Shown piece after piece: positions 4,920 through 64,000 of a stretch of DNA of 64,000 nt; the first letter of the stretch is position 1; every line of letters begins with the position of its first letter. Position numbers and translations under genes: made by a program. The notes beneath the pieces are model-generated. The model was not told where the DNA came from and did not search any database. It saw nothing but the letters and a program-made list of their open reading frames with translations. Origin of the DNA: Eledone cirrhosa (taxonomy: Eukaryota); assembly GCA_964016885.1 (NCBI GenBank), contig OZ024754.1:11470001-11534000 (forward strand). Reading direction: 5' to 3'.

Positions 4920-5679
4920 CTACAAAATCAAAGGTAGAAAAAAAAAGAAAAAAGAAAAGAATACAGCAATGATGAAAATGGTTAATATAGATAAATATAA
5001 ACACTTGCTTTTGTGGGTTTCTGTGATAAACACATTAACCCTTTAACAATAACATTACTCTATATATACTATTATATTTTCACAGTAAAGGCTTTACCTT
5101 ACATAATTATCTCATATAATATTGAATCTATGAGATTTTGATATTATTTATTTTGAGAACAATACCTTAACATCAGTATAAGTGGCCAGTTACGGCCAGT
5201 TTGAAAGGAAAGAGGTGAGACAATTCTGGCCAGATATGGCCTGTTTAAATGTTGAATTAAATATACATATACTGTAAAGAGGGTCAGTATAATATGTATC
5301 TTTTATACTTCAATGTTTGGCAGACATTACCAACTTACAATAACAGTGAAACTTTGAAATAAACACCAAAAATATTATAAAATATATACAAGATGTCTAA
5401 ATATGCTAGAGGTGTGTACATGACGGTATATATAAATATATATGCAATATGTTTATATATAATAAATATGCATGGATCTCACTATGAATGTTTTAAGCTG
5501 TAATCTTGTCACAAATGTCTCAACAGCTGTGTGAGATAGCCATTTTTATTTTATACTAGCAGAATGGCCCGGTGTTGCTCGGGATTTGCTCTAGGGTTCT
5601 TATATATTTGATATATATTTATCCTTATCCTGTTTATATTTTGTTATTGTGAATGCAAAAATATCTGTACATGAACATA

Positions 5680-5747
<68 letters not shown>

Positions 5748-5804
5748 TAACAGATTAAAGTTTAAGCAAAGAATTGCTGCTTTAGACATTTTTATTTTAT
5801 ATAA

Positions 5805-10996: not shown

Positions 10997-11252
10997 CTGT
11001 CTGTGCTTGTATGTATGTATATATGTCTCACAGCTCATCTAACCCATGCTTGCATGGAAAAATGGACATAAAAAGGTGATGATGATGATATATAACAAAA
11101 ACTATCATCATCATCATCATCATTTAACGTCCATCTTCCACACTAGCATGGGTTAGACGGGTTTGTCCCATTTGAGGTAAGTTTGGCTGGGTGACCGTGT
11201 CTCGCTCGTATGGGACTGTTTCATAAAAATAAAAGAGTGAAACAGACAACTA

Positions 11253-11638
11253 AATAATTGCTTCTACTTTTGGCACAAGGCCAGCAATTATCCCAGTGCA
11301 TTACTGGTACTTTATTTTATCGACCACGTAAGGATGAAAGGCAAAGTTAACCTCGGCAGGATTTGAACTCAGATCATAAAGGGCCGTAACTCTAAGCTGC
11401 AAAGCATGGCGTCCGACCCTCTACCGATACTGCCAATCCATTAAATAATTATTTCTACTTTAGGCACAAGGCCAGCAATTACCCAGTACATTACTGGTAC
11501 TTTCTATTTTTATCGACCCCATAAGGATGAAAGGCAAAGTTAACCTTGGCGGGATTTGAACTCAGACTGTAAAGGGACGTAACTATGCTAGAAAGCATGG
11601 AATCCGACCCTCTACCGATACTGCCAATTAACCGCCCT
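11253..11638 (-). mobile_element. Two tandem family 1 SINEs
   Basis: Same A/B boxes and core. Confidence 0.8.
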
Positions 11639-11708
11639 TCCATTAAATAATTCACCGCCAATCCATTAAATAATACAGACAAGAAATATGTGAGAAAAGC
11701 CCTCTTAC

Positions 11709-16516: not shown

Positions 16517-17134
16517 ACAAACTTGTCCCAAGGACTGAGTGCTCTACTACTACGGATATTACCCACCAGTATTCTACTATTATATATATATATATATATA
16601 TATATATTGAGTTAAAAACTCAGGGTAGTTAGTTTCTTACAATTAAATAGCTCTAAGAAAAAAGCTTTTCCGAGCTGTCTCCAATACACTCTAGTTGTTG
16701 CCAGGCATTTTGCCCAATATAGCTCTGTTATTTTTCTTTATTTTTCTTAATTTAATATTTAAAGTTAAGGATAACAAATTATAATGCTGTAGTTAGTATT
16801 TTTTCACCCTAGCAAATTTGGTCCTTATGATTCGAACACATGTATGTTTATATTAGTGTTCATCTCTCTTGTTTATTCATATATATATATATATATATAT
16901 AAACAAGGTAAACAGCAAATAAAGTAATCAAGAAGAGAGAAAGGTGATTAGTTATGCAGATTACTACCCAGTAGAGAGAGTTAGTGTGCTCAATGCATAC
17001 AGATTGTTAGACTAGCGAGCCATGTGATTAGAAGGAAAGAGAGATAGCTTCACAATCGTATAATAAGCAGAGCAAAAAATCATATCTAAATATGGTATAT
17101 ATATATATATACATACACACACACATATATATAT

Positions 17135-17323
17135 AACTGTTTCTACTTTAGGCACAAGGCCAGCAATTACCCAGTGCATTACTGGTACTTTATTTTATCG
17201 ACCTCGTAAGGATGAAAGGCTAAGTCAACCTCGGCGGGATTTGAACTCAGATCGTAAAGGGACGTAACTATGCTGGAAAGCATGGCGTCCGACTCTCTAC
17301 CGATACTGCCAATCCACCGCCCC
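17135..17323 (-). mobile_element. Family 1 SINE
   Basis: Full length. Confidence 0.8.
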
Positions 17324-17782
17324 TTACATATAGGTTTTGTTTTTAGTCCTGCAGGATGTCCAAAGTCACCCTCCTCACCAAGAAACCTTGGTGGGGTTGC
17401 CAGTTTAGTCGCCAACGACCATGGAACAGTTTGTACTGGAATACATGTTACCAGTAGCACCAACTGGTGACCTGACATATATATATATACACACATATAT
17501 ATATAACAATTGTCAGACTGTAAATAAATCCCTTTTTTGCACTGCTGACCATGTTATTCTTCACTTTTTCAATTTTATTACTCCAAGATAAACTTACATA
17601 GGAATACAAGTGAAATCATCTCGTCATCTCCGTAAACCTCTTGTTGAGTCAAACAACGCCGTACGCTAAAACTATCCATAATAAGAAGTATTCACAACCT
17701 CTAACTGGATTACCTATTACGATATTTTGTTATCCATTATATATATACACATATATTTATACACCCACACACATATATATAT

Positions 17783-18519: not shown

Positions 18520-20750
18520 CACATATATATATACACATATATTTATACACACACAGATACACATACACACATACATATATATGTGTGTGTGTATGTATCA
18601 GGAGGTGTCATAGTTACCAACTGCTAGTCAATTAACAATGATTGTCCTTATTAAGCAAACACAGTTGGACCATTCGTACGCAGTGAAGTGATGTGAAATT
18701 TCACAAAGGACAGCAACACAACAATCTATGAGATTAGTGTAGCAGAGTTTTTACCTGTGTGTTTGTATCTCTCAAATATATACAAGTCAAAACATGTCTT
18801 TCCTTGATGTGTTTTTAGATTCTACATTTATGGTCAAAATAAGAGATCCATAGAGAACAACAGCAGGCAAAAATTTATATCAATAAATTACCTTTTGTCA
18901 TTCTATTTATATTTAACTACTTCATAGCCATATGTATAATTTTGAATGTAATCAAAAGTTTGGAAAGATTTAGATGATGTCCATGAGTGTGATTGGTAAT
19001 TCCAGCACCATAGCCATGCTATCACCCACAGCAATGCTGCATGTGAGCTTGCCTAAAAAGTTACTAGAGGAAGAGTCCATCAGCTCTTGTCGTGGTATAT
19101 GACAACGTGTGGATATTCTTCCACTTCGTTTTTTTTTAAATATAAATTGTGTTTATATATTAATATATAAACAAGATATTATATATATGAAATACTGTCT
19201 ACCTACATCAGATACATAATATATATTGTGTTCATATGTAAATCATAGTCATAATGAATTGGCAGTATTGGTAGAGCGTCGATCAACATGCTTTGCGGCA
19301 TATAGTTATGGTTTTTTTATGTTCTGAGTTCAAATCCTGCCAAGGTTAGCTTTGTCTTTCATCCTTACGGGGTCAATAAAATAAAGAATATATATTGTTT
19401 TTATATGTAAATAAAATCTATCACTAGCTTTCTCACCATCTCCCTGACTTTCATTTCCTCCTCCATCATCTTAGCCATGTCTTTCTTGGTCCTGCCCTTC
19501 CTCTAAATCCTTCTACATTCACCTCCATCTCACCTCTCACCCAGTCACAATCACCCTTCCTCAACACATGACCCAGACATCTCACAAAATCTCTTCACAA
19601 CATTCATCACTGGTTCTATTCCACTCAACCACTACTATTCCTGATGAGTATAGTCACATCATAGGACTTCATATAGAGTTTATTTACATGAAGAACAGGT
19701 CACATATAGAATATGATGATGGCACTATGTAAGACCCAAAACACTGTAGACTATTTAGCTGTAGTAGTAACATATAGCTTACACTATATGCAAATGAGCT
19801 CCAGTAGATGTTTTATTTGTAAAAAAGTATATAAGCTACAGCTTATTCTTGTCTCAGTAGATTGAGTAAATGTCACTGATGATGGATAAAAAATCCTGAA
19901 AGATATGTCTGGCATTCTCACATGGCTACTGAGATAGCGATAACATGATCACAGCTTGAAATACCTATAACAAGACCTATATATGTTTATTATAAATATA
20001 AATATTGTATACGCCTTCATATACACCTCAATGTCAGGTCACTCTCAAGTGATACTGGTAACTTGTTGCATGATCAGGTCATTGGCAACAAAATTGGCAA
20101 CCCCATCAAGCCTGGTTGATGAGCTGAATGATTGGTGGAGACCCTGAGTGATGAAAAAAAGAACAGTCAAAAGGCTGAAGAACTCATGAGAATCAATGGC
20201 CATCCAACAATGTATAAATATGTTTGTACATATATGATTTAATACCTTGTTGTGGTGGAGTGACATATGTGCTGTTTTGATCCAGAGGGTTATACTAGCA
20301 GGAAACAAACTCCTGGTAAGTCCAACTATGCTAGACAAGGCTGAAGGTTAGGCGCTGGACTAAACCTTAATCGTTAGAGGAGTAAACCTCAACAACAACA
20401 AAATCCCACCATGAACAACATTTAGGTCAATGGTGATTCATATTGATGTTGAGTGGAAGAATGTTATGTCACTGGTCAGGATCAAAAGATTTCATTAAGT
20501 GAAAAACTGCAGCATGCATTGGTGGGTAGCACTGGATGCATGTTTCATGGTACAATTGAAACTCATTATGCTGGAACATATTAACCCTTTAGCATTTAAA
20601 TAGGCTAGAACTCTCTCATCTCTTTCTGTTCAAACTGGCTCTAACTGGCCACTCATGCTTATGTTAAGGTATTGTTCTTGAAATAAATAATATCAAAATA
20701 TCATAGATTTGATATTATGTAAGGTGAAGCCTTTACCATGAAAATATAAT

Positions 20751-20936
20751 TGTTTCGATTCTTGGCACAAGGCCAGCAATTTCCCAGTACATTACTGGTA
20801 CTTTATTTTATCGACCCCCGTAAGGATGAAAGGCAAAGTTAACCTCAGCGGGATTTGAACTCAGATCATAAAGGGACGTAACTCTGTGCTTCAAAGCATG
20901 GTGTCCGACTCTCTACCGATACTGCCAATCCACCGC
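20751..20936 (-). mobile_element. Family 1 SINE inserted into a MITE with a 21-bp TSD
   Basis: cctttaccatgaaaatataat at 20730-20750 and 20937-20957. Confidence 0.85.
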
Positions 20937-21127
20937 CCTTTACCATGAAAATATAATAGTATATAGAGAGTAATGTAAATGTTAAAGAATAGAGTGATTT
21001 TGAAAAATATGTGTATAGACAGATCGGTGAACTAACAGTCAGCATAGAAAGAAGATAAACATCTACTAATAAACTAACTATATCTAGATAAGAAAAAATG
21101 TCAACAATTGGTAAGTGTTGTACTTAC

Positions 21128-21241
21128 TGACACAGAGTACAGCGAGGAAAATAATATAGATGATGAGTTCTCTAAGTGTGGTCTTCACGTGAAGTTCTCG
21201 GTCACCTTTTGTCTCTTCTGTATCACGGGTAGCCCACAGAG
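21128..21241 (-). CDS. PKD2: Polycystin-2 exon 2 (LWATRDTEETKGDRELHVKTTLRELIIYIIFLAVLCV, S1 start)
   Basis: Polypyrimidine/CAG acceptor and GTAAGT donor; 114 nt; conserved TTLREL motif. Confidence 0.95.
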
Positions 21242-21279
21242 CTGTGAAGAAAAAAGAGATAGGGATCAGTTGGTAATAA

Positions 21280-22100
21280 TGATTTCTCATCTTGAGGCCT
21301 GCAATTGGTGGAGAGGAGAGGAGAAAATCAATTAAATAAACCTCAGTAGATAACTGGTACTTATTGACCCTGTAAGGATGAAAAGCCAAATTGACCTTGG
21401 TGGGATTCAAACTCAGAACGCAAAGAGCCAGAACAAATAATTGTTTCTACTTTTGGCACAAGGCCAGCAATTACCCAGTACATTACTGGTACTTTATTTT
21501 ATCGACCCCGTAAGGATGAAAGGCGAAGTTAACCTCGGCGGGATTTGAACTCAGACCGTAAAGGGCTGTAACTCTTTGTTGCAAAGCATGGTGTCAGACC
21601 CTCTACCGATTCTGCCAATTCAGCAGCCAGAACAAATAATTGTTTCTACTTTAGGCACAAGGCCAGAAATTATCCCAGTACATTACTGGTACTTTATTTT
21701 ATCGATCCCGTAAGGATGAAAGGCAAAGTTAACCTCGGCGGGATTTGAACTCAGATCATAAAGGGACGTAAGTCTATGCTTCAAAGCATGGTGTCCGACT
21801 CTCTATTGATACTGCCAATCCACCAATGACAAATGGACAGTATTGATTGAAACTGGGTTGCCAGATCCATATAAAAAGTGAAATGTTGGAATCCAAACAC
21901 CGAATTGCTATGAATGATAATTGTTTCTACTTTTGGCACAAGGCCAGCAATTATCCCAGTACATTACTGGTACTTTATTTTATCAACCCCGTAAGGATGA
22001 AAGGCAAAGTCAACCTCGGCGGGATTTGAACTCAGATCATAAAGGGACGTAACTATGCTGGAAAGCATGGCGTCCAACCCTCTACCGATACTGCCAATTC
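21280..22100 (-). mobile_element. Cluster of four family 1 SINEs
   Basis: Copies at about 21280-21430, 21437-21620, 21636-21824 and 21918-22100. Confidence 0.8.
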
Positions 22101-22577
22101 AATGCAAGGTATTTATCCAATGTTGTAATCCACCCCCTATCAGTTGATAATAATCAAGGGCAGTGGACTGGCAGAATTGGTAAACATTGGATAAAATGCC
22201 ATTGTGGTAATTGTTCTGTCTCTTTAGGTTCTGAGTTCAAATCCTGCTGAAGTCAATTTTGCTTTTAATCTCCCCAAGGGTCAATATGACGGTTGTCTGC
22301 TCAACATGAAACTTGACCACCTCAATGTACATGGAGCTCAGTTCTGGCATGAAAACCCATGTGGCTTTTTAGACCAGACATACTTTTAAAAAGTCGTCCA
22401 CATAAATTGCACCTTAGATTCGGAGTAACTTCACCTGCCTGAGTTCTCTGATCTTGATGAACCCTGAAATGTCTCTTTAGACCTCCTACATATGTGTGTG
22501 TGTGTATATATACACATATGTTATATATATATATATATATACATATATGGAGGCACATGGCTTAGTGGTTAGAGCAA

Positions 22578-28500: not shown

Positions 28501-28808
28501 TAGAAAGTGAGGTTTTTTTTACAAATTGAAAAATAACCGAGGTGTCCTACACGAGTGAAAGTATAAAGAAAAAGAGATGAAATCGAAAATGCAACTGGAG
28601 TCTTATTTTTAAAAAATATATATATATTTATTTGGTTCCTTTACCGGTTTCGCAGTTCTTCTGCTTTTCAAAGGTAGAGTTGAGATGGAGGGTCTGTGGT
28701 TTTTCTCACATCAGAAGAACTGCGAAACCGGTAAAGGAACCAAATAAATATATATATTTTTTTAAAAAATAAGACTCCAGTTGCATTTTCGATTTCCTCT
28801 CTTTTTCT
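28501..28808. mobile_element. Family F fold-back element in (TA)n; second copy at 48152-48398 with the interior inverted
   Basis: Shared 5' end TAGAAAGTGAGGTTTTTTTTACAAA; internal inverted repeats. Confidence 0.75.
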
Positions 28809-36604: not shown

Positions 36605-36846
36605 GCTAACTTTATACTTCCTCTAAGTCACTGTCCTAACTAAATCTTATAAAGGCGGTTTTTAATAATTGTTTCCACTTTTGGCACAAGGCCAGCAATT
36701 ACCCAGTGCATTACTTGTACTTTATTTTATCGACCCCGTAAGGATGAAAGGCAAAGTCAACCTCGGCGGGATTTGAACTCAGACCGTAAAGGGACGTAAC
36801 TATGCTGGAAAGCATGGCGTCCGACCCTCTACCGATACTGCCAATT
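36605..36846 (-). mobile_element. Family 1 SINE
   Basis: Same core. Confidence 0.8.
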
Positions 36847-37427
36847 AATAATGTTATTTTAAACATACGCGGTCGTAAAATATTTTGTTTTTGAATTTTA
36901 AAAAATTTACTATCTTAACTCTCTCTCATTACAATATTTCATACGAAAGACATTAAAGACCCAGGGGTAGACCCTGAGCAAGATGGCTAGATAACATCCA
37001 CGAGCTCAACTAGTCTCGCTTGTGGATCCAACTGGATCAATTGGAGACAGTTGCTTCTGACGGGACTTGCTGGAAGGAGTGTTTGAGGACTCCTGCCCCC
37101 ACGACCCTGTCAGGAATAAGTGGACGAAGAAGATCTCATTATTGTGAATATAAATTACAGGTTCTTACAAATCATCCTCATGAAAGGTTTTAAAAATAAA
37201 TCTGTACCATTGAACTTCTTCAGCTTCCATTCTTTTACTCTTTTACCTGTTCCAGCCATCCAGCTGAGGCCATGCTGGGGCACTGCCCTTGAGTTTTACC
37301 TGAGTTTTCCTAACCTCGAGAAAATCTGGCATTATATCTCCTCCAAAACATGAACCTACGTAGGGACTTAACAGAGCAGGTACCTAATTATTTAGTGCAC
37401 TAAGTTAGTCGTGCAATGTGTCTAATT

Positions 37428-41562: not shown

Positions 41563-41613
41563 AGTTTAAGCAATGAATCGCTGCTTTCACCCTTAACAGG
41601 ATCTTCTGAAACT
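41563..41613 (-). ncRNA. Hammerhead-like motif with CAGAAGA core (family C)
   Basis: Reverse complement: agttt CAGAAGA tcctgttaagggt GAAA gca...tgc TT aaact. Confidence 0.65.
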
Positions 41614-45252: not shown

Positions 45253-45288
45253 TCTTCTGATGAAGGACTAGCGTCCGAAACGTTAAGA
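45253..45288 (+). ncRNA. Minimal hammerhead ribozyme (family A)
   Basis: tctt CTGATGA a ggac-tagc-gtcc GAAA cg TT aaga; ACGU palindrome replaces stem III. Confidence 0.8.
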
Positions 45289-46344: not shown

Positions 46345-46385
46345 CTGAGAACAATTGTTTCACCTTAGTCGGATCATCAGCTCGT
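46345..46385 (-). ncRNA. Hammerhead ribozyme (family B)
   Basis: Reverse complement: gag CTGATGA tccgactaaggt GAAA caattg TT ctc. Confidence 0.65.
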
Positions 46386-48289: not shown

Positions 48290-48327
48290 CCTTTTGAAAA
48301 GCAGAAGAACTGCGAAACCGGTAAAGG
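48290..48327 (+). ncRNA. Hammerhead ribozyme, U3-A8 core variant (family F)
   Basis: cctt TTGAAAA gcag-aagaa-ctgc GAAA ccgg TA aagg. Second copy at 28638-28674 (-) has a 1-nt deletion in stem I. Confidence 0.75.
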
Positions 48328-48483
48328 AACCAAATAAATATATATATTTTTTTAAATAAGACTCCAGTTGCATTTTCGATTTCATCTCTTTTTCTTTATA
48401 TATATATATATAGAGTTATAAACTCAAATAGAATTTTACAATTAAATAGCTACAAAGAAAGGAATATTTCTGAGCCGTGTAAT

Positions 48484-49075
48484 ACAAATGGATATATGAT
48501 AGGGATAAACACTGACACAAGTATACATGTGTTCGCATTGTAACTGACCAAGTTAGCTCGATTGAAAAATACTAATTAAAATAATACGGTTTGCCTGTCT
48601 CGATTTAAAATAATAAATCAATAAAAATAGCCGTGATACCTGGACAAATTTTTAATTTGTTTCGCAACAATTAAGTGAAAGTTCCTATTCCTGTGCTGTT
48701 CTGCAGGTATCCAGAAATTGGTATGTTTCACTTCAAAATACTTAAGAAGACTGAGAGAAATGTGTTGTTGAACGCACATATGTCACAGTATTTTGAAGTG
48801 AAGTATTTTGAAGTGAAACTTACCAATTTCTGGATACCTGCAGAAGAGCACAGGAATAGGAACTTTCACTTAATTGTTGCGAAACAAATTTAAAATTTGT
48901 CCAGGTATCACGGCTATTGCCAATATAGGTTTGTTTTTATTGATTTATTATTTTAAATCGAGACAGGCAAACCGTATTATTTTAATTAGTATTTTTCAAT
49001 CTAGCTAACTTGGTCAGTTACAATACGAACACATGTAGACTTGTATCAGTGTTTATCCCTATCATATATCCATTT

Positions 49076-49077
<2 letters not shown>
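48484..49077. mobile_element. Fold-back non-autonomous element (~260-bp inverted arms) carrying two hammerhead motifs
   Basis: Arms about 48484-48742 and 48801-49077; (TA)n flanks; related fragment at 16608-16870. Confidence 0.75.
48833..48909 (+). ncRNA. Hammerhead-like motif with CAGAAGA core (family D)
   Basis: gatacctg CAGAAGA gca...tgc GAAA caaatttaaaatttg TC caggtatc; 8-bp stem I and GUC site. The inverted copy at 48635-48711 has G8C. Confidence 0.75.
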
Positions 49078-49148
<71 letters not shown>

Positions 49149-49169: not shown

Positions 49170-49220
49170 AGTTTAAGCAAAGAATCGCTGCTTTCACCCT
49201 TAACGGGATCTTCTGAAACT
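49170..49220 (-). ncRNA. Hammerhead-like motif with CAGAAGA core (family C)
   Basis: Reverse complement: agttt CAGAAGA tcccgttaagggt GAAA gca...tgc TT aaact. Confidence 0.65.
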
Positions 49221-55156: not shown

Positions 55157-55216
55157 TTTATTATATATATTTCGAAGGTACTGTATTGTTTATCCAGTTC
55201 GTCCTCGTCAGATAAA
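55157..55216 (-). ncRNA. Type I hammerhead ribozyme motif in 3' pLTR of PLE
   Basis: Reverse complement: tttat CTGACGA ggacgaactgg...cagtaccttc GAAA tatata TA ataaa. Confidence 0.75.
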
Positions 55217-55448: not shown

Positions 55449-57632
55449 AAAAAGAAAAAATAAGAAAAAATAAATAAATACATACATAAATATTTAAATG
55501 AATAAAAGAAAAAGGAAGGAGAAATAACGACAAAAGAGAGGGAACATAAAATATATGTTAGGATATATAAAAAAAACCGTTGTTTAAAAATATTTGGTCA
55601 ATTGAGGCAACCAATCAATTACCACAAACCATTGAATATCTCTTGTATTTGATTATGGTTAAGCTAATTATACTTATATATTATATCAAAATTAGTCAAT
55701 ATACATTACTTTTTATAGCCGTCACATAATTGGTTTAATTAAAAATTTATATAATTTAATTTAACTCATTATAGATTATAATTTTAGTTTAAGCAATATA
55801 TTCCTTAAGTATTTTGTTACACTTTAAAAAGATTTTATCTTTAAAACAAATTTAGGTAATTATTAAACATGCATTTAAAATATATATTAAAATACATGCA
55901 TATCTCACCATCAATATATATAATATATTAAGATCATTTTTTAGCCGAATTATTTATTTAAATATGATATTTACATTATAAAATCATTTCTATTCTTTAA
56001 TTATCATATAATTACAGGATTAAATTGCTGTTATATTTAATCTCAAAAGTTTTATTCCGTTAATTTATATTTACTTCAGTAATTATACATTATTATAGTT
56101 TCCTTTAAAGATATTCTTATATTATTAAACGACATAATTCATGTCAAATATAATTTAGTAAGCTATTCAAAATGCAATTTAGCGAAATGGAAGCGTTCCG
56201 ATAGTAATTGGCATTTTTTAACCGTGTCCAAGAGATGGAGTATTTAATATTCTTGTCCTTCAAAGACCATATTAATTGTGAGAGTGAAGTTGAAAATTTT
56301 TTATCTGGATTAGAAAAATAATTTTTATAACTGTACCAACGAACCTTAAATTTAGATCAAGTGGCGCCAATATAGTTGTATATATTATTATTTGTCTTAA
56401 TGGTTCATTTATATACTAGATTCTTGTCAAGGCAATTATTTTGTAAGGGACATTCTGACTTCTTTCTACAGTTACATTTCTTCTCGATGTTACTTCTATA
56501 CCCTAAACTATTCATATTATTAAAGGTGTTCTACTATTATTCATATTTAAACTATTATTATTGTTATTCCCATAAACTAGTGTATTATTGTTATTATTGT
56601 TATTATCGCTATTTATATGCTGGTTCAAATTAAGATTTTTTACTATTTATTTTTGCTATATTTTGAGCAATATTCATAGTTGTTGAATAAGAGAGTTTAA
56701 CTGTGTGTCTATTGAAGATAGAGTAATATTTATGTGATCTAGGGAAGTATTTATCCAAGGTTTTAAAAAATAAGTGTGCTAAAGATGTTTTAATGGCTAA
56801 AGATACTGGCGGAGCATACCAAATTATAGATCTAGTTCTTATTTTTTCCTCCGATTTATTCTTCAAGTTGTTGTTTTTATAGTAAATTTTATTATTATTA
56901 ATATTATTATGAATACTGTGATTATAATTAATATTATTTTCAGTGTTTTTTTCCACATACTCAATATTATTGTTATATCCAGCTTTATGTAACGCTTCAT
57001 TATAATATACAGCCTTACTATTAAATATGGATATATTAGCAGATAGTCTGGATATTCGTTGTTGCACACTGTTGACTATTGCATTCTTAACACTTTTAGG
57101 ATGATTAGAATAAAAACTAACATAATTTAAGTTCTCATTGAGTTTATGGAAAGGATAATAAAGGCCTGAGTTCAAATTAAGAGTTACATCTAAAAAATTA
57201 ATTATTTTATTGTTATTTTCAACTTCTAATTTCAGGTCGTAATTAAAAAAAAATTCTATAATTATTTTCTTTACTCTATTTAATTCGCTATTATTATGTT
57301 TTTCTACAATAAATAATATGTCGTCTCTATATAAACCACCGGTAATCTCCGGCAGTTTTCTATATATCATGTTAAGGATGAACATTCCCACAAGATCGGT
57401 AACTTGTGCTGAATCAGACGAGCCCATAGTAATGTCAAAGTTCTTCAGCCTATCGGATCTAGTCCAAAGATCATTATTAAAATCTATCAATGTTCGCCTT
57501 GCAGTTAGAATAATGTTTATCTCGTCACTAGATAGATCCGTGTGTCTATATGCATATGATACCGCCTTATTTAGTAAGTTAGGAGTTATCCTCGATAACT
57601 CCTAACCTACTAAATAAGGCGCTATCATATAT

Positions 57633-62335: not shown

Positions 62336-63287
62336 CAATGTTTGATGTATAAGAGAGTGACATACCCGAAATATAAAGTTTCATCTTCAGCTTACAGTTG
62401 GCATGTGGAATAAAAACTTAAAATTTCACAGGACTTAACAGTGATATAATGAACAGATAAAAATACCGTTATTTTAGACGCTGGAGAATTTTGAAAAATA
62501 GTGTGTTTATATTGGTTGTGGGGCGGCCATTAAAAGGGTGGTGTATCAGTTGATTGAAGATTTATGCATAAATATTTATATTACCGCGGAAATATTCGCG
62601 TATATACGTATCATAATCTATAATATGTTATATTCGAGAATTATGAAAAATATTCTAGCTAATAGTTTAGAATCGCTAAGACTTTTCATGAGGTTTACAG
62701 TTAAACTATTAGCTAGAATCTATAAAACTCTTCATAAGGGTTATGGTTAAACTATTAGCTAGAATCTATAACTCTTCATAAGGGTTATGGTTAAACTATT
62801 AGCTAGAATCTATAAAACCCTTCATAAGGTTTACGGTTAAACTATTACCTATCACTATTATATATATAATTCACTTACTTACCATATATATAAAAATATA
62901 CAAATATAATTATACGTTCCAGTAGATAGAAGCATATATATATATTCATTCAAAGTAACAAATACCGTTATCTAAATCACATTTTGAATACGTTGATAAG
63001 AAATTCTTTATTAAACATTAGAAATAATAAGAGTTACTTCCCTGTCGATGTTTACTTATGAAATACGTATATTAAAATAAATATGATGCTATAGTGATAT
63101 TTTCCATTTATTTTGCTGGCCTTGTGCTTAAAGTAGAAACAATTATTATTATTAATAATATTATAATACTCCAGATAAAATTTTACTGTAGAGTGCTTCA
63201 TATCTGTTATGAACATAATTCTGTTGAATATTCATCCACAAAGCATATAACTCATTGTTTATATATATATATATATATATAATAATA

Positions 63288-63476
63288 ATAATTTTTCTAC
63301 TTTTGGCACAAGGCCAGCAAATACCCAGTACATTACTGGTACTTTATTTTATCGACCCCGTAAGGATGAAAGGCAAAGTTTACCTCGGCGGGATTGGAAC
63401 TCAGAATAGAAAGGGCCGTAACTCTATGCGTCAAAGCATGACGTCCGACCCTCTACTGATACTGCCAATCCACTGC
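63288..63476 (-). mobile_element. Family 1 SINE
   Basis: Same core. Confidence 0.8.
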
Positions 63477-63851
63477 TCTATAATAATAATAATAATAGGT
63501 TACAGTATCGTAAAAGTGGATAGAAAGAAGAGGTATAAAGAAGTACGATACAGAATATTACATGCCAAAAGCAGATGCATAAGTGCTCGATGCTTGGGTT
63601 AACAGGGTTAAATATTAGAGAAGGTTAATATTTGGTGTAAGGTTAAGCAGAGTGGTGAATAGCAAAATAATTAATGAGAGAGTTACAAGCCGTTAAAACA
63701 TATCTTGCACCGGTAATTACCTCCCTTAGCAAACTACACTCCTTTTCAACGTGTTTACACTTTTAACATTTAAATTTACTATGCAAGGTGATGTAAAACT
63801 TTTATTTAACCCTTTTAGGGTATGTAATTAAAAACTTTGCTTGCAATATCT

Positions 63852-63891
63852 GCCTCAGACGAGCCCCATTGGGTGAAACACGTGTAAGAGC
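63852..63891 (+). ncRNA. Hammerhead-like motif with CAGACGA core (family E)
   Basis: ct CAGACGA gccc-catt-gggt GAAA cacgtg TA ag; stem I weak. Confidence 0.55.
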
Positions 63892-64000
63892 TTTATAAAG
63901 ATATGTTTTAACGGCTTGTAACTCTTTCATTAATTATTTTGCTATATATATATATATATAAATACACACACACACATTATATATATATATGGTATGTATG

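Follow-up and report, generated by a model that had tools for sequence, protein, structure and literature searches.

Type I hammerhead ribozymes are carried by Penelope-like retroelements and by non-coding retrozymes. In the text of Cervera and de la Pena (2014), the Penelope motifs lie in the pseudo-LTRs, occur in inverted and tandem copies, have a palindromic stem III and follow the consensus CUGANGAH (PMC4209133). The Hydra-clade elements described by Craig et al. (2021) are single-ORF elements of ~3 kb with a type I motif in the 3' pseudo-LTR. The non-LTR retrozymes of animals are short, non-coding and arranged head to tail, with one type I hammerhead per unit of ~300 nt (PMC7229834; Li et al., bioRxiv 10.64898/2026.07.22.740005); such an arrangement is characteristic of elements that pass through self-cut circles (PMC7229834).

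Within the CUGA uridine turn of the core, U4 contacts the phosphate between A6 and N7 (PMC3088659). A deep mutational scan reports low activity for all single changes in the turn (PMC9901934). Natural changes are known as rare single cases: U4C, U3-A8 and A6C (PMC3088659, PMC7151607). U4C is slow in vitro, is sufficient in vivo and supports viroid infection (PMC3088659). The hammerhead of an anole Penelope element cuts only with its protein; core mutants of this element still insert, and unprocessed RNA is the main insertion substrate (PMC11167929).

In the genome of Eledone cirrhosa (3.0 Gb, repeat-rich), three hammerhead families, C, D and E, have A at position 4. Like the known variants, U4A is a single natural change in the CUGA turn; unlike them, it is no isolated case, since three families have it fixed and the copies number tens of thousands. 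The text of PMC3088659 and PMC7151607 does not mention U4A, and the text of PMC4209133, in contrast to the families described here, mentions no position-4 change. No natural A4 hammerhead was found in the published text and supplements searched. A4 is a real variant that arose convergently in a known ribozyme, carried by elements of known kinds, and it is apparently undescribed.

Hammerhead motifs in the window

The window is the whole stretch of 64,000 nt that was analysed; its A4 features are listed in Table 1. C, D and E each have three stems in type I order around the core, and C3, G5, A6, G8, A9, G12, A13, A14, the A15.1-U16.1 pair and H17 are all kept. Only U4 of the CUGA turn departs from the hammerhead consensus, and because A is fixed in its place the families are classed as variant rather than consensus hammerheads. 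The sequence-only reading had reported A at position 4 in C (CAGAAGA), D and E (CAGACGA), and each site is confirmed. Its account of the D motif, with an 8-bp stem I, a 7-bp stem III and a GUC site, was also correct and refers to the plus strand. The extents it gave for the two C copies stand, but the strand was omitted; both are on the minus strand.

Table 1. Position-4 variant hammerheads of the window and the copies that carry them
Feature	Position	Strand	Details
Family C type I hammerhead	49170..49220	-	C3 at 49215, A4 at 49214; predicted cut between 49175 and 49174
Second family C hammerhead	41563..41613	-	C3 at 41608, A4 at 41607
Family D type I hammerhead	48833..48909	+	core 48841-48847, A4 at 48842; G12-A15.1 at 48881-48884; predicted cut after 48901
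Family D copy, direct arm	48801..49079	+	piece of a ~490-nt non-coding tandem unit; ends at a (TA)n tract
Inverted arm of the same D insertion	48400..48789	-	hammerhead 48635-48711, also A4
Family E type I hammerhead	63852..63891	+	C3 at 63856, A4 at 63857; predicted cut after 63886
Family E truncated copy	63670..63945	+	3' end of a Penelope-like element; ends at (TA)n

The C motif has a CUU site and a U-U at 10.1-11.1. The E motif has a GUA site, a palindromic 6-nt stem III (as in the motifs of PMC4209133) and one bulged A in stem I. In D, stem III includes A15.1-U16.1 and is closed by a 3-nt loop, and the minimum-energy fold of the motif is the hammerhead; the copy in the inverted arm has a private G8C change. 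A third, shorter C fragment, without the 5' part of the core, lies at 5741-5784 (-).

By sequence and fold, the motifs of C, D and E belong to the type I hammerheads; their cleavage is predicted. The case for them is made by the fixed core, by where they lie in the element and by compensatory changes in their relatives. Within the D clade, 6 of 18 pairs have changed on both sides so that the fold is preserved; D and its closest relative, D', differ by three swapped pairs in stem I, and compensatory changes likewise keep the fold between E and its U4 sister family, E'. With position 4 left open, a hammerhead descriptor matched 89 sites in 864 kb of unselected genome, 13 of which begin CA, and 6 in the reversed sequence. 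Folding energy alone is not significant (z of -1.75 and -1.65 for D, above 0 for C and E). Among 145 Rfam matches (E<=1) in the window there is no hammerhead family, and the U4 motifs there are unlisted as well. Strict CUGANGA searches miss the variant, as the sequence-only reading had expected; such a descriptor was used by Craig et al. (PMC8557442).

Further CAGAAGA strings at 28712, 28663 and 48302 were rejected as cores, since a U4 hammerhead with U3-A8 lies there in another register. They belong to a multi-copy family with a U3-A8 core, U4 and a palindromic stem III, found at 48294-48325 (+), about 28704 (+) and 28671 (-); its loop II holds a CAGAAGA that mimics an A4 core. The U3-A8 covariant reported in PMC4209133 is thus also present in this genome. 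The window contains other hammerheads with U4. Minimal motifs with a one-pair stem III and a canonical core are found at 45257 (+), 54140 (+), 45922 (-), 40654 (-), 34706 (-) and 6393 (-), several of them in inverted pairs. A canonical U4 family with U-U at 10.1-11.1 occurs at 46380, 41301 and 16511 (all -); elsewhere (L147) a copy of it lies 208 nt past a related ORF. Two dispersed repeats are also present: a SINE-like repeat of ~200 nt (123-322, 11252-11647, 17130-17332, 20744-22117, 36662-36864, 63284-63486) and a repeat of ~330 nt with a tRNA-like head (6421, 22577, 23760, 40167).

Carrier elements

Judged by sequence, C and E are 3' repeats of Hydra-like Penelope retroelements and distant members of one clade. 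They are assigned to the Hydra clade because of the DKT, CxCX5C, CxxC and CxH motifs and the (TA)n insertion (as described in PMC8557442), the full set of which is seen in C. In C, a 708-residue ORF lies between two hammerheads 3.26 kb apart (L067), which is the length of the unit; the 3' UTR is about 940 nt. The architecture is a single ORF, with RT followed by a C-terminal GIY-YIG-type domain, between partial tandem pseudo-LTRs; the domains were assigned by eye, and the ORF has no match in Pfam. An extra letter or U-U at the base of stem II and a short stem III are common to the Hydra-clade elements and the families described here. C differs from the Hydra-clade description in having RWR rather than RWK and a longer unit, and the core differs too: 26 of 26 Hydra rows in file S2 of the same paper have CUGA.

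In the window, the C copy at 49170..49220 is the 3' end of a truncated Penelope-like element and adjoins (TA)n; the copy at 41563..41613 is very short, 5'-truncated and flanked by (TA)n tracts. Upstream of the E copies are broken pieces of a related ORF with about 40% identity to that of C; the E ORF was recovered only as such pieces. The E copy of the window has a short inverted piece at its left end. A broken piece of another Hydra-like ORF (37% to C) is found at about 56200-57595 (-), followed by a U4 hammerhead at 55211 (-). Eight of 30 near-full-length C copies (L208-L237) begin near a second (tail) 3' end point (~190-220 in the upstream reference), as if one round on a circular template, or a transcription start there, had set their length.

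D has a different kind of carrier. Its unit is 489 nt, non-coding (the longest stop-free frame is 98 codons) and holds one type I hammerhead; units occur head to tail and inverted, with two full units in tandem in one locus (L059). An ORF found beside D (L013/L162) was considered as its coding part and rejected: it belongs to a U4 family into which D has inserted. D is a non-coding tandem derivative of the retrozyme type, as judged by a unit layout that matches animal retrozymes. It is unlike the published animal non-LTR retrozymes in its longer unit, long stem III, long loop II and A4 core.

Family state and origin of A4

Copies were counted genome-wide with exact flanks required and any letter allowed at the seven core positions. 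This gave 19,573 matches for C, with A4 in 100 of the 100 listed and in about 99% overall. D has 186, with A4 in 99 of the 100 listed and U4 in one. The 61 matches of E comprise 49 A, 10 C, 1 T and 1 G at position 4 (hand count). A is thus the family-wide state in all three; a U4 consensus was not found. Decay of single copies, which the sequence-only reading had argued against, is ruled out by these counts. In C, 173 otherwise exact copies have another letter at position 4, comparable with position 6 (159 variants) and position 7 (187), and this level is that of mutation after insertion. The first 100 of the 173 are 41 G, 34 T and 25 C (hand count); there is no excess of G4 and the share of G at position 6 is similar, so A-to-I editing of copied RNA was also rejected. 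U4 revertants make up about a third of the 173 and show no expansion. A4 is common to C subfamilies that are ~85% identical over the 3' UTR. Contigs assembled from sequencing runs (kind unstated) confirm A4 in one organism; single low-depth contigs from two others are too weak to be counted. In other families, C4 cores with good stems occur as isolated cases (L161 (-) 3518; L286:2167), in addition to the C4 subgroup of E.

The three families had been described as unrelated. This is true of their stems, but C and E belong to one Penelope-like clade. It had also been claimed that the change recurs in independent scaffolds, and U4 sisters and a tree test bear this out, giving three separate origins. 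E' has a homologous hammerhead with U3-A8 and U4, the latter in 19 of 19 copies. In trees of the second half of the ORF (28 rows; 16 rows), E joins E' with support of 100/100, apart from C. A constraint that places C and E in one clade is rejected (AU p 4.2e-8), and the tree requires two state changes. It should be noted that the tree rows were pieced from single broken copies, that the trees are unrooted and that they contain only copies from the Eledone cirrhosa genome. D' is 77% identical to D with a 545-nt unit, and U4 is present in 24 of the 24 rows listed, some of which are duplicates from overlapping loci; three more distant lineages of the D clade (L216, L034, L371) also have U4. A single shared origin of A4 is ruled out for C and E by the tree test and for D by its U4 relatives; since E' and four relatives of D keep U4 and the C+E clade is rejected, the origins are independent. 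D' itself appears as a young tandem family (L160:40-330, L315-L334), and its stem III appears to be lengthened by an insertion of about 60 nt and to contain another GAAA-like run.

U4 is also the rule in a wider sample. In the 864 kb of unselected genome there are 19 multi-copy clusters, 3 with A4 and 16 with U4; about 15 U4 clusters remain after one (cluster 7), a low-complexity satellite at one locus, was dropped. Among 77 metagenome loci with related ORFs (marine relatives), a motif is present in 52 and has U4 in all 52 (hand count); the other 25 have no motif, and many of these are short. Because the sisters, the ~15 other families, the metagenome motifs and the published Hydra rows all keep U4, U4 is ancestral by parsimony on these sequences, and A4 arose three times. 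Compared with 0 of ~47 distinct marine motifs, 3 of 18 families here have A4 (p about 0.02, by hand); this value is weaker if more U4 lineages are counted and is inflated by the choice of window. For the C branch there is no close control: in the family nearest to C in the tree (L167), no hammerhead was found in 11 loci. The abundant older family closest to C in the tree (L196-L207) has no recognisable hammerhead in the 1.5 kb past its ORF; it may have a further variant or a longer 3' end.

This distribution bears on the idea that A4 is a neutral alternative turn, nearly fully active in its real setting through an element protein, a dimer, a metal ion or loop contacts. Rescue of this kind has precedents: the anole hammerhead cut only once its protein was added (PMC11167929), and a natural A6C variant was restored by Mn2+ (PMC7151607). 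The palindromic stem III of E is typical of dimer-forming motifs (PMC4209133), and stem I can be extended past an internal loop in both C and E. However, a neutral A4 should occur in other hosts, and it is found in none of the 52 metagenome motifs and in none of the 26 Hydra rows of PMC8557442 (a biased sample, collected with a CUGA descriptor). Nor is any shared compensating change visible among C, D and E, and near-full activity is improbable.

Possible cleavage by the A4 ribozymes

The reading preferred here, at a probability of about 0.5, is that C and E, in Penelope-like terminal repeats, and D each fixed A4 separately and likely still cut RNA, slowly. The sequence-only reading had argued from the recurrence for a functional core variant; function is put forward here as a candidate reading. 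The same change at the same position in three lineages, with the ten other core positions kept, argues for this and against plain loss of function. The chance of three identical first hits among ~33 substitutions is roughly 1 in 1000, a hand estimate which assumes a ribozyme released from selection and does not include mutation bias or ascertainment. U4A is a transversion; the U4 families have no T-to-A hot spot, and their rare variants at this position are C. That position 4 already has a known slow natural variant, the U4C of PMC3088659, supports a slow ribozyme by analogy.

A4 would weaken the uridine turn, so that a larger share of transcripts would be left uncut at the 3' repeat. Penelope-like reverse transcription would start just downstream of the hammerhead and copy uncut or re-ligated RNA. 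If this is the copied form, a slower ribozyme would cost little or even help. Some cutting may still be used, either for release from read-through RNA or, in D, for circle formation; the ten intact core letters suggest as much. C copies contain the intact motif and extend at least 29 nt beyond the predicted cut. Of 30 that reach the ORF start, 17 continue far enough to include an entire upstream hammerhead; the 5' ends are scattered, and no copy begins at the cut. Read-through copies fit uncut multimers and re-ligated circles equally.

Alternatively, A4 may kill catalysis. The motif would then be a folded landmark for an element protein, or would simply not have decayed yet; it would have ridden with master copies for which cutting was dispensable. 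In support, core mutants of the anole element did not impair in vitro insertion (PMC11167929): if cleavage is not needed for insertion, a dead or nearly dead ribozyme could also reach high copy number. Naiad elements thrive without canonical hammerheads (PMC8557442), the mutational scan found changes in the CUGA turn low in activity (PMC9901934), and copy ends in the genome give no trace of cutting. Against this, loss of function should hit many core positions, whereas the three lineages share one letter and keep the rest; about 15 other families here retain the full core. D has no ORF, and its head-to-tail copies are those expected of elements made through self-cut circles (PMC7229834). A dead ribozyme is unlikely on balance.

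Certain observations also run contrary to slow cutting. E has a C4 subgroup (10 of 61), so position 4 may be relaxed in this family, and the compensatory changes in the fold could predate A4. For core selection after A4, shared variants in E fall at 0 of 10 core sites and 37 of 219 others, a difference that is not significant (p ~0.16, by hand); the C sample available for such a comparison was picked by a pattern that fixes part of the core. The U4 families E' and D' have 3156 and 2527 search candidates respectively; they too spread well, so slow cutting is not needed for success.

The ends of genomic copies were examined for traces of cutting. C shows no excess of copies starting at the predicted cut (95, compared with 93 at a control position). 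In D a single copy starts there and in D' none (0); E' has 11, of which 6 are in two tandem arrays (no control position). Since the U4 families show no trace either, genomic ends are uninformative on cutting. A set of 50 loose ends at 5412 in the contigs was set aside; it reflects a mismatch in the reference copy and disappears when another copy is used.

A further proposal concerns RNA processing. U4A turns CUG into CAG and could have been selected as a 3' splice acceptor in the core; splicing would drop the 5' half of the ribozyme and leave an uncleavable message for the ORF ~200 nt downstream. No other change at position 4 creates YAG, and this would account for A rather than C or G; all three families have pyrimidine-rich sequence and a branch-point-like motif upstream. 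The Penelope intron of Drosophila virilis ends at the 5' side of helix I (PMC4209133), and an AG just upstream of stem I is present in the closest U4 relative of D but absent from D. However, U4 families also commonly have pyrimidine-rich flanks, the 20 nt upstream in C already contain two AGs, and D has no ORF. Among the best-supported contig rows listed (contig kind unstated) there is no joint or loose end at position 6, and a splicing role is very improbable.

A stronger form of the slow-cutting reading is tentative and rather doubtful. U4A would be a convergently selected governor: three lineages would have fixed a core change that lowers cutting without abolishing it, to the gain of the elements, one of which became a dominant repeat, with possible use as a splice acceptor as well.

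U4A adds to the hammerhead a natural core variant that consensus searches miss, with at least 19,573 copies in family C alone. E and D, each with a U4 sister, form matched natural pairs. These pairs bear on the role of the hammerhead in Penelope-like elements and on whether fast cutting is desirable. Should A4 hammerheads prove able to cut, a broader core consensus would be required; should they prove inactive, the great success of such a family would show that elements can do without cutting in vivo.
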